Shown in pieces: positions 138 through 56,789 of a stretch of 64,000 nt of DNA (its first letter is position 1; the number at the start of each line of letters is the position of its first letter). Source of the stretch: Shigella phage ESh24. The notes below the pieces were generated by a model. The model had not been told where the DNA came from and searched no databases. It saw nothing but the letters and a program-made list of their open reading frames with translations. The stretch lies in the sequence record ON528734; one strand, given 5' to 3'. The translations under genes and the position numbers were made by a program.

Positions 138-431
138 ATGAAAAAATTTATCTTTGCCACAATTTTTGCTTTAGCTTCTTGTGCTGCTCAGCCTGCTATG
201 GCAGGTTATGATAAAGATTTGTGCGAATGGTCTATGACTGCTGATCAGACTGAGGTTGAAACTCAAATTGAAGCAGATATTATGAATATCGTTGAGCGCG
301 ATCGCCCTGAAATGAAAGCTGAAGTGCAAAAACAGCTTAAGTCTGGTGGTGTAATGCAGTATAATTATGTTCTGTATTGCGATAAAAACTTTAATAATAA
401 AAATATCATCGCTGAAGTGGTAGGTGAGTAA
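138..431 (+). CDS. sp: Spackle-like periplasmic protein (97 aa, N-terminal signal peptide)
   Basis: 97-aa ORF with signal peptide MKKFIFATIFALASCAAQPAMA; length and position (gene 61 cluster) match T4 sp as recalled. Confidence 0.6.
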   Translation: MKKFIFATIFALASCAAQPAMAGYDKDLCEWSMTADQTEVETQIEADIMNIVERDRPEMKAEVQKQLKSGGVMQYNYVLYCDKNFNNKNIIAEVVGE

Positions 432-444
432 TTAGAGGTTAAGT

Positions 445-801
445 ATGTATAGTTCTGAATTTTCATATTTAAAAATGGAAAAAATTTCATACGATTTTAT
501 AGATGAAAAGGTTTATTATAGTTTCCATGAACCACGTTTTAATAGTGAGGTTGGGTTTATTGTAGTAAAAGACAATTTTATTTTAAAAATATATTCAGCA
601 TTAAAGGATTTTCATTACGAAAATATTAACCTAAAATTTAATAAAGAAAACGTTCGTAATTGCGCAGTAACAATTACAGGAAATAAAGGTACATGTGTTA
701 TGCTATCTGATGAAATTAATGATTTGCTAAATGATGCAGAAAATATTACTGCGCCATCTATTGATGACCAAATTTTTAATGCTTTTATGAATAGAGGTTA
801 A
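445..801 (+). CDS. hypothetical protein (61.2-position ORF)
   Basis: 118-aa ORF tightly packed between sp and primase; AT-rich phage codon usage. Confidence 0.5.
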   Translation: MYSSEFSYLKMEKISYDFIDEKVYYSFHEPRFNSEVGFIVVKDNFILKIYSALKDFHYENINLKFNKENVRNCAVTITGNKGTCVMLSDEINDLLNDAENITAPSIDDQIFNAFMNRG

Positions 802-802
802 T

Positions 803-967
803 ATGAAAACATATAAAGAATTTATCAAAGAAGATATGGTCGCTGGAGATTCAGGTGGTAATCCTGAAAATATCTCTACTGGAACAACATCAGGTGCTGT
901 AGTAAATAAAGGTCCTGAACAGATTCCTAAAAAGAAAAAAGAGGAATCTAAAGAAAAAGAAGAGTAA
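803..967 (+). CDS. hypothetical small acidic/lysine-rich protein (61.1-position)
   Basis: 54-codon ORF ATG 803 to TAA 965-967, not in the >=60 aa track; ends 2 nt before primase ATG. Confidence 0.4.
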   Translation: MKTYKEFIKEDMVAGDSGGNPENISTGTTSGAVVNKGPEQIPKKKKEESKEKEE

Positions 968-969
968 AA

Positions 970-1998
970 ATGTCATCAATACCTTGGATTGATAATGAGT
1001 TTGCATACCGTGCATTAGCTCATTTACCTAAATTCACACAAGTAAATAATAGTTCAACTTTTAAATTGCGGTTTAGATGCCCAGTGTGTGGAGATTCAAA
1101 AACCGACCAGAATAAAGCTCGTGGATGGTATTATGGTGATAATAATGAAGGAAACATTCATTGTTATAACTGTAACTATCATGCACCAATCGGAATATAT
1201 TTAAAGGAGTTTGAACCTGATTTATATCGTGAGTATATCTTTGAAATAAGAAAAGAAAAAGGTAAAAGTCGTCCAGTAGAAAAACCTAAAGAACTTCCTA
1301 AACAACCTGAGAAGAAAATAATTAAATCTCTTCCGTCATGTGTTCGATTAGATAAACTGGCGGAAGACCATCCAATTATAAAATATGTAAAAGCTCGTTG
1401 TATTCCAAAGGATAAATGGAAATATCTTTGGTTTACAACCGAATGGCCTAAATTAGTTAATAGCATAGCACCGGGAACATATAAAAAGGAAATTTCTGAG
1501 CCTCGTCTTGTTATTCCAATTTATAATGCTAATGGAAAAGCTGAGTCTTTTCAAGGACGTGCATTAAAGAAAGATGCTCCTCAAAAATATATCACCATCA
1601 AAGCTTATCCTGAGGCAACAAAAATCTATGGAGTCGAACGAGTTAAAGATGGTGATGTATATGTTCTAGAAGGACCTATAGATTCGCTTTTTATTGAAAA
1701 TGGTATAGCTATTACGGGTGGTCAATTAGACCTAGAAATTGTTCCATTTAAAGATAGACGTGTGTGGGTTTTAGATAATGAACCTCGTCATCCTGACACT
1801 ATTAAGCGAATGACTAAATTAGTTGATGCAGGAGAAAGGGTTATGTTTTGGGATAAATCTCCCTGGAAATCAAAAGATGTTAATGATATGATTAGAAAGG
1901 AAGGTGCAACCCCTGAACAAATTATGGAATATATGAAAAATAATATTGCCCAGGGGTTAATGGCTAAAATGCGGTTATCTAAATATGCTAAGATTTAA
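970..1998 (+). CDS. 61: DNA primase gp61
   Basis: 342 aa, N-terminal zinc ribbon CPVCGD...CYNC; length and sequence match T4 gp61 as recalled. Confidence 0.9.
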   Translation: MSSIPWIDNEFAYRALAHLPKFTQVNNSSTFKLRFRCPVCGDSKTDQNKARGWYYGDNNEGNIHCYNCNYHAPIGIYLKEFEPDLYREYIFEIRKEKGKSRPVEKPKELPKQPEKKIIKSLPSCVRLDKLAEDHPIIKYVKARCIPKDKWKYLWFTTEWPKLVNSIAPGTYKKEISEPRLVIPIYNANGKAESFQGRALKKDAPQKYITIKAYPEATKIYGVERVKDGDVYVLEGPIDSLFIENGIAITGGQLDLEIVPFKDRRVWVLDNEPRHPDTIKRMTKLVDAGERVMFWDKSPWKSKDVNDMIRKEGATPEQIMEYMKNNIAQGLMAKMRLSKYAKI

Positions 1999-19968: not shown

Positions 19969-19981
19969 GGGCTTCGGCCCT
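19967..19981 (+). terminator. terminator-like UUCG hairpin after rIIB
   Basis: AGGGCTTCGGCCCTT. Confidence 0.55.
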
Positions 19982-21393: not shown

Positions 21394-21507
21394 ATGAAAA
21401 AGATTATTAAAGCTATATGGAATGTAGTTATAATACTAATAGTTTTGAGTATATTCCCAATCGTTTTAATGATTGATGTATTAAACGCTTACTTTGGATT
21501 TATGTGA
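21394..21507 (+). CDS. hypothetical small membrane protein
   Basis: 37-aa hydrophobic ORF after same promoter/RBS cassette. Confidence 0.3.
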   Translation: MKKIIKAIWNVVIILIVLSIFPIVLMIDVLNAYFGFM

Positions 21508-21514
21508 GGAAAAT

Positions 21515-21712
21515 ATGAAGCGTAAACGCAGTGCTTTTACATTTATTGAATGGTTTTTCGATAATATTTTTCCGGCTTTATTCATTTTCATGCTGATTTT
21601 TGCCTTAGGTTCAGTTGTAGTTGGAATCTATTTGATGGCGGTAGTCGGAATGGATATTCATCAAAATGGTTTAAAATCCGTAGTTGAAACAATTTGGAAT
21701 GGTGTAAAATGA
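21515..21712 (+). CDS. hypothetical small membrane protein
   Basis: 65 aa, one TM segment. Confidence 0.35.
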   Translation: MKRKRSAFTFIEWFFDNIFPALFIFMLIFALGSVVVGIYLMAVVGMDIHQNGLKSVVETIWNGVK

Positions 21713-21827
21713 TGAATTTGTTGAGCGGTTGGTTTTATATTCTTATGTTTTACATTGGTGCAAATTTTCCATATTGGATGGGATGGTCAACAACTGCATT
21801 TGGATTTTATACTCCTTGAGGTGAATT

Positions 21828-22043
21828 ATGAAAAGTTTTAAAGATGTAAAAGTTGGTGAAATTTTCTGTTTAGATAACGGTGATCAGTTAATTCGTATTT
21901 CACCTCTTAAGAGCACTAGCGAGAAACCGACAGTTAATGCTACTTTAGCAAATAACAGTAACGAACGTTTCTGTATTGAAAGTGATACTGAAACTTATAC
22001 TGTAGAAGAGTTTTGGGAATTGAGCGTCGCCTGCGACGATTAA
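21828..22043 (+). CDS. hypothetical protein
   Basis: 71-aa ORF. Confidence 0.4.
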   Translation: MKSFKDVKVGEIFCLDNGDQLIRISPLKSTSEKPTVNATLANNSNERFCIESDTETYTVEEFWELSVACDD

Positions 22044-22103
22044 TTTAATGGCCGTGTGTATTCATGCGGCCTTGGAGTAGAAAATAATTTAGAGGAAATT
22101 AAT

Positions 22104-22562
22104 ATGAAATACATGACTGTTACTGATCTGAATAATGCAGGCGCTACTGTTATTGGTACAATCAAGGGCGGTGAGTGGTTTTTGGGAACTCCGCATAAAG
22201 ATATTTTATCTAAACCTGGATTTTACTTTTTAGTGAGTAAATTAGATGGTCGTCCATTTAGTAATCCATGTGTGTCTGCACGATTTTATGTGGGTAATCA
22301 GCGTTCTAAGCAAGGATTCAGCGCAGTTCTAAGTCATATTCGTCAACGCCGGTCTCAACTTGCGCGTACTATTGCAAATAACAATGTTCCATACACAGTA
22401 TTTTATCTGCCTGCTTCTAAGATGAAACCTCTGACGACGGGATTTGGTAAAGGTCAGTTAGCTTTAGCGTTTACTCGTAATCATCATTCTGAGTATCAAA
22501 CACTTGAAGAAATGAACCGTATGTTGGCTGATAACTTTAAATTTGTTTTACAGGCATATTAA
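22104..22562 (+). CDS. ndd: nucleoid disruption protein Ndd
   Basis: 152 aa from ATG 22104; position and size match T4 ndd. Confidence 0.75.
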
Positions 22563-22642
22563 TGAGTAATTTCCACAACGAACACGTGATGCAGTTCTAT
22601 CGTAATAATTTTAAAACTAAAGGCGTCTTCGGACGCCAGTGA
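22562..22642 (+). CDS. stp: Stp peptide (26 aa)
   Basis: [26 protein letters not shown], 26 codons, ATG overlapping ndd stop; matches T4 Stp as recalled. Confidence 0.8.
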
Positions 22643-22949
22643 GGAAAATATGGTTATTCTGGTTTTTTATTGAACTTATTACGGCTATTGTCTGTTCGGT
22701 TTGCTTCTTTTTAGGCATGTGGACCCCAGGTTCAGTATTCTTAAGTTTTCTGTTTATTGCCTGGGTGCTTTCTACTTCTGTTGGCTTACTTAAGATGATT
22801 AAAAATGATTAAGAAAATCTTGGGCTATTCATTAGCCCTTGCTATTTTATTAATAGCGTTATATTATGGAGTAATGTTCGGATTAATTCAAGTCGTGCTT
22901 TTCATTTCTGATGTTATTATGGCACTACATTCACTAGTATGGTAAATTT

Positions 22950-24278
22950 ATGCAACTGAATAATCGCGATTTAAAAAGTATCATTGATAATGAAGCATTG
23001 GCTTATGCTATGTACACGGTTGAAAATCGTGCTATCCCAAATATGATTGACGGATTTAAGCCAGTTCAACGATTTGTTATTGCTCGAGCTCTTGATTTGG
23101 CACGAGGAAATAAAGATAAGTTTCACAAACTCGCTTCTATTGCAGGTGGTGTAGCGGACCTTGGATATCATCATGGTGAAAACTCTGCGCAAGACGCAGG
23201 TGCTTTAATGGCTAACACTTGGAATAATAACTTTCCTCTGTTAGATGGTCAAGGAAACTTTGGTTCTCGTACCGTCCAAAAAGCAGCAGCAAGTCGTTAT
23301 ATTTTTGCTCGTGTAAGTAAAAATTTCTATAACGTATATAAAGATACTGAATATGCTCCGGTACATCAAGATAAAGAACACATTCCGCCTGCTTTCTATT
23401 TGCCTATTATTCCTACTGTTCTTCTTAATGGCGTTTCCGGTATTGCAACTGGTTATGCAACTTACATTCTTCCTCATAGTGTTTCTTCTGTCAAGAAAGC
23501 TGTACTACAAGCTCTTCAAGGAAAGAAAGTAACTAAACCGAAGGTAGAATTCCCAGAATTTCGTGGTAAAGTCGTTGAAATTGATGGGCAATATGAAATT
23601 CGTGGAACATATAAGTTTACTTCACGAACTCAAATGCATATCACTGAGATTCCGTATAAGTATGATCGTGAAACTTATGTGAGTAAAATCTTAGACCCAC
23701 TTGAAGATAAAGGCTTCATTACATGGGATGATGCTTGTGGTGAGCACGGCTTCGGCTTTAAAGTTAAATTCCGTAAAGAATATTCTTTGAGCGATAATGA
23801 AGAAGAACGCCATGCAAAAATTATGAAAGACTTCGGGTTGATTGAGCGTCGTTCTCAGAATATTACGGTTATTAATGAGAAAGGAAAGCTACAAGTTTAC
23901 GATAACGTAGTCGATTTAATTAAAGACTTTGTTGAAGTTCGTAAAACTTATGTCAAAAAACGAATTGATAACAAAATCAAAGAAACTGAATCAGCTTTTC
24001 GTTTAGCCTTTGCCAAGGCACATTTCATTAAGAAAGTAATTTCAGGTGAAATTGTTGTACAAGGTAAAACTCGTAAAGAACTAACCGAAGAACTTTCTAA
24101 AATTGATATGTATTCTTCTTATGTTGATAAACTAGTCGGAATGAATATTTTTCATATGACTTCCGACGAAGCAAAGAAACTTGCTGAAGAAGCAAAAGCT
24201 AAAAAAGAAGAAAACGAATATTGGAAAACTACTGATGTAGTTACAGAATACACCAAAGATTTAGAGGAAATCAAATGA
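22950..24278 (+). CDS. 52: DNA topoisomerase II medium subunit gp52
   Basis: 442 aa, GyrA-like N-terminus; T4 gp52 length. Confidence 0.9.
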   Translation: MQLNNRDLKSIIDNEALAYAMYTVENRAIPNMIDGFKPVQRFVIARALDLARGNKDKFHKLASIAGGVADLGYHHGENSAQDAGALMANTWNNNFPLLDGQGNFGSRTVQKAAASRYIFARVSKNFYNVYKDTEYAPVHQDKEHIPPAFYLPIIPTVLLNGVSGIATGYATYILPHSVSSVKKAVLQALQGKKVTKPKVEFPEFRGKVVEIDGQYEIRGTYKFTSRTQMHITEIPYKYDRETYVSKILDPLEDKGFITWDDACGEHGFGFKVKFRKEYSLSDNEEERHAKIMKDFGLIERRSQNITVINEKGKLQVYDNVVDLIKDFVEVRKTYVKKRIDNKIKETESAFRLAFAKAHFIKKVISGEIVVQGKTRKELTEELSKIDMYSSYVDKLVGMNIFHMTSDEAKKLAEEAKAKKEENEYWKTTDVVTEYTKDLEEIK

Positions 24279-26566: not shown

Positions 26567-26846
26567 ATGATTATTGATTCTCAATCTGTGGTTCAATATA
26601 CAATCAAAATTGATATTCTAGAAAAGCTATATAAGTTTTCTACCAAATTTATACCATTCAATTGTTAATGAATTAGTTGAAGAATTACATCTTGAGAATA
26701 ACGATTTCTTGATTGGAACTTATAAAGACCTCTCAAAAGCAGGATATTTTTACGTAATTCCAGCTCCAGGAAAAAGTATTGATGATATATTAAAAACTAT
26801 AATGATTTACGTCCATGATTACGAAATTGAAGATTATTTCGAATGA
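26567..26846 (+). pseudogene. arn: arn-like acidic ORF interrupted by a +1 frame break
   Basis: ATG 26567 with RBS AAGGGGAAGG; frame stops after 33 codons at 26666-26668 while the +1 frame continues 60 more codons to TGA 26844-26846; combined about 92 aa. Confidence 0.4.
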
Positions 26847-50425: not shown

Positions 50426-52013
<1,588 letters not shown>

Positions 52014-53448: not shown

Positions 53449-54669
<1,221 letters not shown>

Positions 54670-55974: not shown

Positions 55975-56552
55975 AAGCGAGTACAGTACTTCAAATTGCA
56001 TATTTAGTATCACAAGAATCAAAATGTTGCTCCTGGAAGGTAGGAGCAGTAATTGAAAAGAATGGACGTATTATTTCTACTGGGTATAATGGTTCGCCTG
56101 CCGGTGGTGTGAACTGCTGTGATTATGCTGCCGAGCAAGGTTGGTTGTTGAATAAACCTAAACATACTATCATTCAAGGTCATAAGCCTGAATGCGTATC
56201 ATTTGGTTCAACTGATCGCTTTGTCTTGGCGAAAGAACACCGTAGCGCTCACTCTGAATGGTCGTCTAAAAATGAAATTCATGCTGAACTAAATGCAATT
56301 TTGTTTGCTGCACGAAATGGTTCTTCTATTGAAGGTGCTACTATGTATGTAACACTTTCTCCTTGTCCAGATTGTGCAAAAGCGATAGCTCAATCTGGTA
56401 TTAAAAAGCTGGTTTATTGCGAAACATACGATAAAAATAAACCTGGCTGGGATGATATTCTGCGAAATGCAGGTATTGAAGTGTTTAATGTTCCTAAGAA
56501 AAACTTGAATAAGTTAAACTGGGAAAATATCAACGAATTCTGTGGTGAATAA
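55971..56552 (+). CDS. cd: dCMP deaminase
   Basis: 193 aa; cytidine/dCMP deaminase Zn motifs HAELNA and SPCPDC. Confidence 0.9.
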   Translation: MKASTVLQIAYLVSQESKCCSWKVGAVIEKNGRIISTGYNGSPAGGVNCCDYAAEQGWLLNKPKHTIIQGHKPECVSFGSTDRFVLAKEHRSAHSEWSSKNEIHAELNAILFAARNGSSIEGATMYVTLSPCPDCAKAIAQSGIKKLVYCETYDKNKPGWDDILRNAGIEVFNVPKKNLNKLNWENINEFCGE

Positions 56553-56789
56553 TGAAATTTCGTTTGGTAAAGCTCACAGCAATTAGTTCTTATTCTAATG
56601 AGAACATCTCGTTTGCTGTAGAGTATAAGAAATATTTTTTTCTCTAAATGGAAACAGTATTATAAAACTGATTGGACTAGTATTGATAGACCATATAGTT
56701 GGAAATCTGATTTAGAAAAATGCCAAAAATTACTTTCCACTCTTAAAGAACGTGGAACAACTCATATTAAAACTGTAATAGGTAAATAA
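56552..56789 (+). pseudogene. small ORF broken by a frame change in a T7 homopolymer (31.2 position)
   Basis: frame stops after 31 codons at 56645-56647 right after TTTTTTT (56635-56641); +1 frame continues 47 codons to TAA 56787-56789 abutting next ATG. Confidence 0.35.

Follow-up and report, generated by a model that had tools for sequence, protein, structure and literature searches.

A predicted Dhakavirus-type membrane-protein gene with a private one-base insertion in the ac slot of Shigella phage ESh24

Introduction

Which small genes lie between ndd and gene 52 in Shigella phage ESh24, and is the middle one of them, which stands where T4 carries ac, an ac gene at all? The question arises from an initial annotation of the window (the whole 64,000-nt stretch of sequence record ON528734 that was analysed), which had placed the Stp peptide and two tiny membrane ORFs after ndd and called all three unannotated. 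That description holds for the track of ORFs of at least 60 aa from which it was made, but not for T4, PP01 and the RB phages, whose annotations include stp, ac and 52.1 at the corresponding positions. Three ORFs of less than 60 aa are indeed there, of 26, 57 and 46 aa, and the two that follow stp are hydrophobic; the coordinates proposed for stp were exact, while those of the other two ORFs were off by 2–5 nt. Much of what is found at this locus is of low novelty: T4 descriptions of stp, 52.1 and CUUCGG hairpins go back decades, and the family of the middle ORF is already catalogued.

Results and Discussion

The ndd–52 region and its relatives

A 10-kb query from the ESh24 window is ~96–97% identical to many sequenced Tequatrovirus relatives and 100% identical to none of them. 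When positions 22040–22960 were searched by megablast, 557 phage records were matched, nearly all of them Tequatrovirus; most of the matches span only 84% of the query, and full coverage was seen only in KIT03, AugustSocin and REP4. The corresponding stretch of T4, PP01 and the RB phages carries the annotation ndd – stp – ac – 52.1 – 52, and we are confident that the ESh24 region is the conserved run of T4-like early genes, with ndd and stp followed by a small membrane-protein cassette, 52.1 and 52 (Table 1). In ESh24, as in T4, PP01 and JS10, the TAA stop of ndd and the ATG of stp have one base in common (TAATG). From orthology we infer that stp, the middle ORF and 52.1 are probably translated in the ESh24 phage.

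Table 1. Features of the ndd–52 region of ESh24 (positions are those of the window)
Feature	Position	Strand	Evidence or description
ndd (nucleoid disruption protein)	22104–22562	+	tblastn of T4 Ndd residues 1–151, 98% identity; annotated likewise in PP01, KIT03 and T4
stp (26-aa Stp peptide, L17F variant of T4 Stp)	22562–22642	+	ATG ORF; PF08133; phrog_6763
Hairpin GGCGTC-TTCG-GACGCC	22622–22637	+	stp codons 21–26; 6-bp perfect stem, UUCG loop, C-G closing pair
57-codon GTG-frame ORF	22639–22812	+	stop TAA 22810–22812; phrog_9347 match; hydropathy
Shine-Dalgarno GAGGAAAA and ATG (22650–22652) of the middle gene	22641–22652	+	alignment with KIT03, AugustSocin and Dhakavirus phages
Truncated canonical frame, ATG GTT ATT CTG GTT TTT TAT TGA (MVILVFY, stop)	22650–22673	+	read from the sequence
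T6 run with private +1 T (T5 in relatives)	22663–22668	+	alignment; comparison of related records
Gene 52.1 (46-aa hydrophobic protein)	22805–22945	+	PF24129 DUF7396; phrog_3595
Gene 52 (topoisomerase II medium subunit)	22950–24278	+	99.3% identical to T4 gp52 over 442 aa

stp and the Stp peptide

T4 Stp binds and inhibits the type IC enzymes EcoprrI and EcoR124I, which unmasks the PrrC tRNA-Lys anticodon nuclease in prr+ hosts, and the phage responds to PrrC with polynucleotide kinase and RNA ligase 1. When T4 proteins were mapped onto the window, these counter-defence genes were found intact (pseT at 53765–54667 and rnlA at 50889–52010). The product of stp itself matched PF08133 (‘Anticodon nuclease activator’) over 26/26 positions with 71.2 bits (cut-off 25; E 4.2e-20), and phrog_6763 with E 3.8e-20. 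Its identification as Stp in the initial annotation stands, as 25 of the 26 residues are those of T4 Stp (NP_049878) and the gene occupies the same place after ndd, with the same TAATG overlap and a C(UUCG)G hairpin in its last codons. L17F is the sole difference between the two peptides, residues 1–16 and 18 being the same as in T4.

Published work on Stp reports that its inhibition of type IC restriction (EcoprrI, EcoR124I) is what activates PrrC, that suppressor mutations cluster at residues 4–14, that the N-proximal 18 residues are almost invariant, and that deletion of the last 8 codons lowers activity only moderately (PMC3014915). Divergence at the residues needed for PrrC activation, which had been named at the outset as the observation that would speak against this reading, was looked for, and none was seen at residues 4–14, the site of the cluster of loss-of-activation mutations. 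Residue 17 falls outside that cluster and inside the near-invariant N-proximal 18 residues. At the same time, the identical 26-aa peptide is present in 29 other phage records, and F17 also occurs in IMG/VR contig L022 and, with a different tail, in NIC06P2; F17 is therefore a natural polymorphism. By these comparisons, the stp product is an orthologue of T4 Stp and a candidate inhibitor of type IC restriction. With no Shine-Dalgarno sequence of its own, the gene probably depends on coupling to ndd for its translation.

A C(UUCG)G hairpin within stp

The last six codons of stp are written so that the mRNA would form a C(UUCG)G hairpin just before the next ribosome-binding site, with G21 V22 F23 G24 R25 and the first base of Q26 making up the element. 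A UUCG hairpin inside the 3’ end of stp had been noticed before, and we could confirm it with its 6-bp stem: the 16-mer folds at −10.0 kcal/mol, is present in both the MFE and the centroid folds of the wider region, and ends 3 nt upstream of the GAGG in the Shine-Dalgarno sequence of the next gene. The wider fold around it is not significant (z = −1.6), the notable part being the 16-nt hairpin alone, and an Rfam search over 21500–23500 gave no known RNA family at E <= 1.

CUUCGG hairpins are a classical T4 phenomenon (Tuerk et al. 1988, as summarised in PMC4371310), and the window is rich in the motif, with 31 copies of CTTCGG against 13.0 ± 3.6 expected and 0/100 shuffles reaching 31. Twelve of the copies, the one in stp included, are carried by stems of 5 bp or longer, and no other tetraloop comes close to TTCG in frequency on stems of that kind. 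Two other CTTCGG hairpins (at 19972 and 58570) stand directly before a Shine-Dalgarno sequence, as the stp hairpin does, and some others precede T-runs. The stp hairpin has the C-G closing pair, the UUCG loop, the GC-rich stem and the position at a gene junction beside a Shine-Dalgarno sequence in common with the C(UUCG)G hairpins of T4, but it lies within coding sequence (stp codons 21–26) and not in an untranslated spacer.

The stem is kept in 18/18 distinct T-even stp sequences with a GVFGR tail, among which a single stem codon has changed (GGC>GGT, compatible with a G•U pair) and a single loop codon (TTC>TTT), and most of the degenerate codons at positions 2–15 vary synonymously in the same sequences. 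This pattern suggests selection on the hairpin at the RNA level, which is nevertheless unproven because the sample is small and its 18 sequences, in which the GVFG peptide is itself conserved, are closely related. T1-like stp genes arrive at nearly the same peptide (…KTKGVFGK) through other codons, GGA/GGG GTG TTT GGA AAA, and have no hairpin, and neither does a T-even stp variant with the tail GILGSKNS. In short, the GVFG peptide seems to be conserved in its own right, with the hairpin as an added, T-even-specific feature.

Most likely, in our view, the hairpin serves the stability or folding of the RNA and does not act as a terminator on the sense strand. A terminator is annotated under stp in two related records, H33 and H38, and on the minus strand, where the stem is followed by TTTAGTTTTA, our terminator scan flagged it, but this antisense tail is interrupted and weak, the sense strand continues with AGUGAGGAAAAUAUG, which holds no U-tract, and genes 52.1 and 52 downstream must be transcribed through the hairpin, all of which makes a role in transcription termination rather improbable. 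An intrinsic terminator on the sense strand was rejected because no U-tract follows the stem there (tail AGUGAGGAAAAUAU), the T-rich tail being antisense only.

The middle ORF belongs with phrog_9347 rather than with ac

The second of the three ORFs had been taken for an ac-like gene of about 50 codons ending at 22807. A hydrophobic ORF is present, but its true end is at 22812 and it has 57 codons when counted from a GTG. Codons 11–57 of this ORF correspond to the conserved body of the phrog_9347 membrane micro-proteins, with two hydrophobic helices around a WTPG turn, while codons 1–10 are an out-of-frame leader. The match to phrog_9347 has an E value of 2.9e-21 and places residues 9–57 on profile positions 5–53 of 53.

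The likeness to ac, on the other hand, was not borne out. BLASTP of the middle ORF against T4 Ac gave no alignment at E <= 100, comparison of the alignments of the two families by hhalign returned a probability of 0.4%, and the two proteins are assigned to different PHROGs (phrog_9347 for the middle ORF and phrog_2501 for T4 Ac, NP_049877); moreover, both genes occur side by side in REP4, JS98 and TH40. That the middle ORF is a remote Ac homologue is ruled out by BLASTP, the PHROG assignment and hhalign. Neither the middle ORF nor Ac has a family in Pfam or NCBIfam, and a tblastn search of the window with T4 Ac gave no match, so that there is no T4-type ac in the window. Among phage records, a phrog_9347-type ORF was found in 76, mostly Dhakavirus and its relatives, and a T4-type Ac in 460; the hosts of phrog_9347 are Dhakavirus, Gaprivervirus, Kanagawavirus, and Enterobacter and Kosakonia T4-likes. 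As judged by sequence and profile comparison, the middle ORF is a member of phrog_9347, a Dhakavirus-typical family of predicted two-helix membrane proteins, and is unrelated to ac.

What the middle ORF and Ac share is only the slot and a two-helix shape of about 50 aa. Both lie between stp and 52.1, behind the same kind of Shine-Dalgarno/ATG junction and with an 8-nt overlap with 52.1, and both have two hydrophobic helices and a C-terminal …ND; at the same time, no sequence or profile similarity between them can be detected. A two-helix protein in the stp–52.1 slot is what one finds in ESh24, but this does not discriminate between the two families, since the slot hosts other cassettes as well, and sometimes two. 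The Dhakavirus-type 53-aa ORFs of phrog_9347 (EpBp7_0144 of Bp7, KIT03_258 and bas38_0100 of AugustSocin), by comparison, have the same flanks, Shine-Dalgarno sequence and ATG as the middle gene of ESh24. The ESh24 ORF is 94% identical to KIT03_258 over the 47 or more residues that they share, and the repaired middle-ORF sequence is likewise 94% identical to KIT03 by tblastn. The ESh24 copy differs from these ORFs in a private +1 T, which parts the ATG and first 6 codons from the remainder of the gene (see below).

Ac sensitises infection to acriflavine and has been proposed to block AcrAB-TolC (bioRxiv 10.1101/2025.06.30.662393; PMC13250531). As the window is without ac, tolerance or resistance to acriflavine is predicted for ESh24, and such a phenotype would be relevant where acridine selection or typing is used.

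The label ‘acridine resistance protein’ should not pass to the phrog_9347 cassette for its position in the ac slot alone. At least one record, that of AugustSocin, already has bas38_0100 mislabelled in this way.

Cassette exchange between stp and 52.1

In a four-way alignment, the window and KIT03 are near-identical throughout, while T4 and PP01 diverge from them completely, and do so only from the Shine-Dalgarno/ATG after stp to the start of 52.1. KIT03 and AugustSocin have the same allele of the slot as the window. Both types of cassette are found together in REP4 (phrog_9347-type first, then ac-type), in JS98 (ac-type first) and in TH40. JS98 and TH40 have two copies of the entire stp–cassette–52.1 module, with 52.1'–'stp fusion scars left behind, and in REP4 repeated 17-nt junctions bound each cassette. 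Such traces illustrate the way in which cassettes are exchanged.

Read from the alignment, the divergence of the slot is that of a cassette replacement, and the stp–52.1 slot is a site of cassette exchange between the short conserved junctions …TGAGGAAAATATG and AAAAATGATTAAGAAA. Most Tequatroviruses have ac in the slot, with ESh24, KIT03 and AugustSocin carrying an unrelated, predicted Dhakavirus-type 53-aa two-helix gene instead. The slot thereby illustrates well how T-even genera exchange cassettes via short conserved junctions.

Gene 52.1

The third ORF had been described as a small membrane gene of 46 codons at 22807–22947, overlapping the start of gene 52. The small membrane gene is there and is 52.1, although it occupies 22805–22945, and in place of an overlap there is a 4-nt spacer between its stop and the gene 52 ATG at 22950. 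Its product matches PF24129 (DUF7396) with 80.1 bits (cut-off 27; E 1e-22) over 46/46 positions, is 95.7% identical to T4 gp52.1 (NP_049876) and identical to KIT03 gp52.1, and resembles the T4 protein also in its 46-aa length, its position and the overlaps of its gene, with nothing notable being different. The first 8 nt of 52.1 are also the last 8 nt of the middle ORF (ATGATTAA). Starting within the tail of the upstream ORF and having no Shine-Dalgarno sequence of its own, 52.1 is probably translated by coupling to that ORF, and its translation would suffer if the frameshift described below were real.

An extra T splits the middle gene from its start codon

In every record examined, relatives begin the middle gene at an ATG located 8 nt after the stp stop, behind GAGGAAAA. 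ESh24 retains this Shine-Dalgarno sequence and ATG but has no intact phrog_9347 ORF starting there: the canonical frame ends after 7 codons at a stop in 22671–22673, while the same ATG opens a 53-aa ORF in KIT03. The early stop is caused by the extra T, which makes a run of six from the five of the relatives. Ribosomes loading at the normal Shine-Dalgarno/ATG would make MVILVFY only, and the remaining 47 codons sit in a frame that is open back to the GTG at 22639.

The extra T was present in 0/59 related phage records with a phrog_9347-type cassette. The 56 full-length matches span 185 nt against the 186-nt query, the exception being vB_EcoM_FB, whose extra base is within stp. In IMG/VR, neither the T6 nor the T5 pattern, as typed, was matched, a metagenome scan with the T5/T6 pattern found neither form and so favours neither, and a protein-guided scan of IMG/VR returned three known Dhakavirus isolates only; public assemblies contain no record of the exact 57-aa product of the GTG ORF. 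The suggestion that the middle gene is GTG-initiated thus loses its footing, as the GTG frame exists only through a one-base insertion seen in none of the 59 related records. Judging from this comparison, the 57-codon ORF is a by-product of the frameshift and not an evolved start, whichever the origin of the extra T.

Sequencing error or recent mutation

When ~100 T4 proteins were mapped onto the window, only arn and 31.2 were found to be frame-split, each by a +1 T. The one in arn (at ~26636, T3>T4) is absent from T4, from KIT03 and from 412/412 matching records, and the one in 31.2 (at ~56635, T6>T7) is absent from T4, from KIT03 and from 68/68 matching records. Either sequencing or assembly error or recent mutation is likely to be behind all three frameshifts. 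Three private T insertions in T-runs suggest homopolymer miscalls; at the same time, that they are confined to small dispensable genes is just as well explained by real, recent mutations that have passed through selection.

We tentatively lean, at somewhat less than even confidence, towards the extra T at 22663–22668 being a homopolymer error of sequencing or assembly, in which case the true phage would have an intact 53-aa, ATG-started gene as KIT03 does. The insertion lies in a homopolymer and is unique with respect to 59 related records, the window holds two more unique +1-T homopolymer insertions, in arn and 31.2, and there is a G5-vs-G4 difference near the end of another ORF; all of these are over-calls in the same direction. 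However, no large or essential gene is frameshifted in ~64 kb, although random errors would occasionally do so, and one of the runs goes only from T3 to T4, which is short for a homopolymer miscall. The three private frameshifts mean that homopolymers in the ESh24 genome need to be checked again before its small genes are interpreted.

A real and recent insertion is quite possible too, if on the whole somewhat improbable. The middle gene, arn and 31.2 would then be fresh pseudogenes of dispensable accessory genes, and expression of 52.1 would be reduced as well, because the coupled upstream ribosomes would be lost. All three insertions are in small non-essential genes, A/T runs are classic frameshift hot spots in T4, and similar frameshifts confined to single records are seen elsewhere, for example in stp of vB_EcoM_FB and in the split ndd of AugustSocin. 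Apart from the insertion, each gene has stayed almost the same as in relatives, which indicates that the events, if real, are young; three independent losses in one isolate would, however, be unusual yet possible.

Could the middle ORF function from its GTG? Ribosomes that end at the stp UGA would have to restart at the overlapping GUG (GUGA) and so make a 57-aa membrane protein with a new N-terminus, which we regard as unlikely. The geometry of GTG 22639 and the stp stop (GTGA) permits termination-reinitiation, and the product would retain both hydrophobic helices and 47/53 canonical residues while gaining positive charges at its N-terminus. Yet this GTG is found in KIT03 and AugustSocin too, and there it begins an out-of-frame ORF of just 24 codons, which argues that the GTG is not an adaptation. 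Moreover, there is no Shine-Dalgarno sequence before GTG 22639, since the bases ahead of it are tied up in the −10 kcal/mol hairpin, the strong Shine-Dalgarno sequence is that of ATG 22650, and the GTG arrangement was found in no other genome (59 records, IMG/VR and public assemblies).

Programmed recoding, with the ribosome slipping by +1 on the U-run (GUU UUU U|AU) or RNA polymerase slipping on T6, would restore MVILVFIELI… from ATG 22650, and if a +1 shift followed the UUU codon at 22665–22667, the exact KIT03 protein sequence would result, but such recoding is barely credible: the T6 run is in none of the relatives, so there is no conserved recoding signal, the A-site codon UAU is neither slow nor a stop, no stimulatory element is apparent, and six U’s are too few for efficient transcriptional slippage. 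That the extra T is real and a working membrane protein is made all the same, whether by GUGA reinitiation, with its expression then tied to the translation of Stp, or by +1 slippage along the U-run, strikes us as very improbable. If it were true, T-runs in T-even accessory genes (the middle ORF, arn and 31.2) would be reversible on/off switches, like contingency loci.

Private frameshifts and an internal ATG

Two genes of the window, arn, which encodes an inhibitor of McrBC restriction, and 31.2, are each split by one additional T. Neither T4 nor KIT03, a phage with the intact cassette allele of the window, carries either extra T, and it is likewise found in 0 of 412 phage records matching arn and 0 of 68 records matching 31.2. 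Comparable frameshifts in the stp region, again private to one record, are seen in other deposited phages, namely vB_EcoM_FB and AugustSocin.

In the middle ORF, the phrog_9347 membrane micro-protein frame downstream of stp, codon 22717-22719 is an ATG where KIT03 and the other relatives examined have GTG (Val). This internal, in-frame ATG has no evident Shine-Dalgarno sequence; a product begun there would be 31 aa long with one helix.

Hairpins, module duplication and gene content

CTTCGG occurs 31 times in the whole window against 13 expected (a 2.4-fold excess), and 12 of these copies fold into C(UUCG)G hairpins whose stems are 5 bp or longer. The window's C(UUCG)G hairpins sit at gene junctions, ahead of T-runs or immediately 5' of Shine-Dalgarno sequences. 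In the minus-strand reading, TTTAGTTTTA comes after the stp hairpin, which then has a terminator-like score; in two related records a "terminator" is annotated at this site.

Positions of the features discussed; coordinates outside the window are local to each locus
Feature	Source	Coordinates	Strand	Detail
arn	window	26567-26846		+1 T at ~26633–26636 (run of four vs three)
31.2	window	56552-56789		+1 T at ~56629–56635 (run of seven vs six)
stp frameshift	vB_EcoM_FB (L006)	633-734		additional C; stp fused into 33-aa ORF
ndd	AugustSocin (L004)	176-633		annotation in two pieces
CTTCGG, examples	window	4533, 14690, 19972, 20201, 58472, 58570, 62490	+	
CTTCGG, examples	window	32775, 28783	-	
stp hairpin, reverse reading	window	22612-22637	-	
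Duplicated module	JS98 (L014)	418-1000		
Duplicated module	TH40 (L010)	632-1270		
Duplicated module	REP4 (L008)	633-1200		
T1-like stp	Rtp (L016)	1183-1275		
T1-like stp	Shfl1 (L017)	1201-1281		
T1-like stp	L030, L032, L033, L035			IMG/VR contigs of 44–50 kb

At the JS98, TH40 and REP4 loci the stp–cassette–52.1 module is present as a tandem duplicate, with different cargo in the two copies, and duplication has left 52.1'–'stp fusion scars. The second stp-like copy of JS98 carries F4S, and the two cassettes of REP4 are bordered by 17-nt repeated junctions.

When T4 proteins were compared with the whole window by tblastn, there was no match for ac, segF, mobA, 60.1, mobE and segG, nor for nrdB.1, 30.7, 30.8, dexA.1 and T4-type gp38. 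The window gp37 is only ~34% identical to that of T4, so its tail-fibre tip belongs to another type.

T1-like siphoviruses (Drexlerviridae) also encode Stp peptides, which share up to 24 of 25 residues with T4 Stp. Although the peptide is nearly the same, the codons differ from those of T4 stp and the hairpin is absent from the T1-like genes. In phage Rtp a polynucleotide kinase/phosphatase gene lies ~700 nt upstream of stp, and the Shfl1 copy, encoding a 26-aa peptide, is unannotated in its record.
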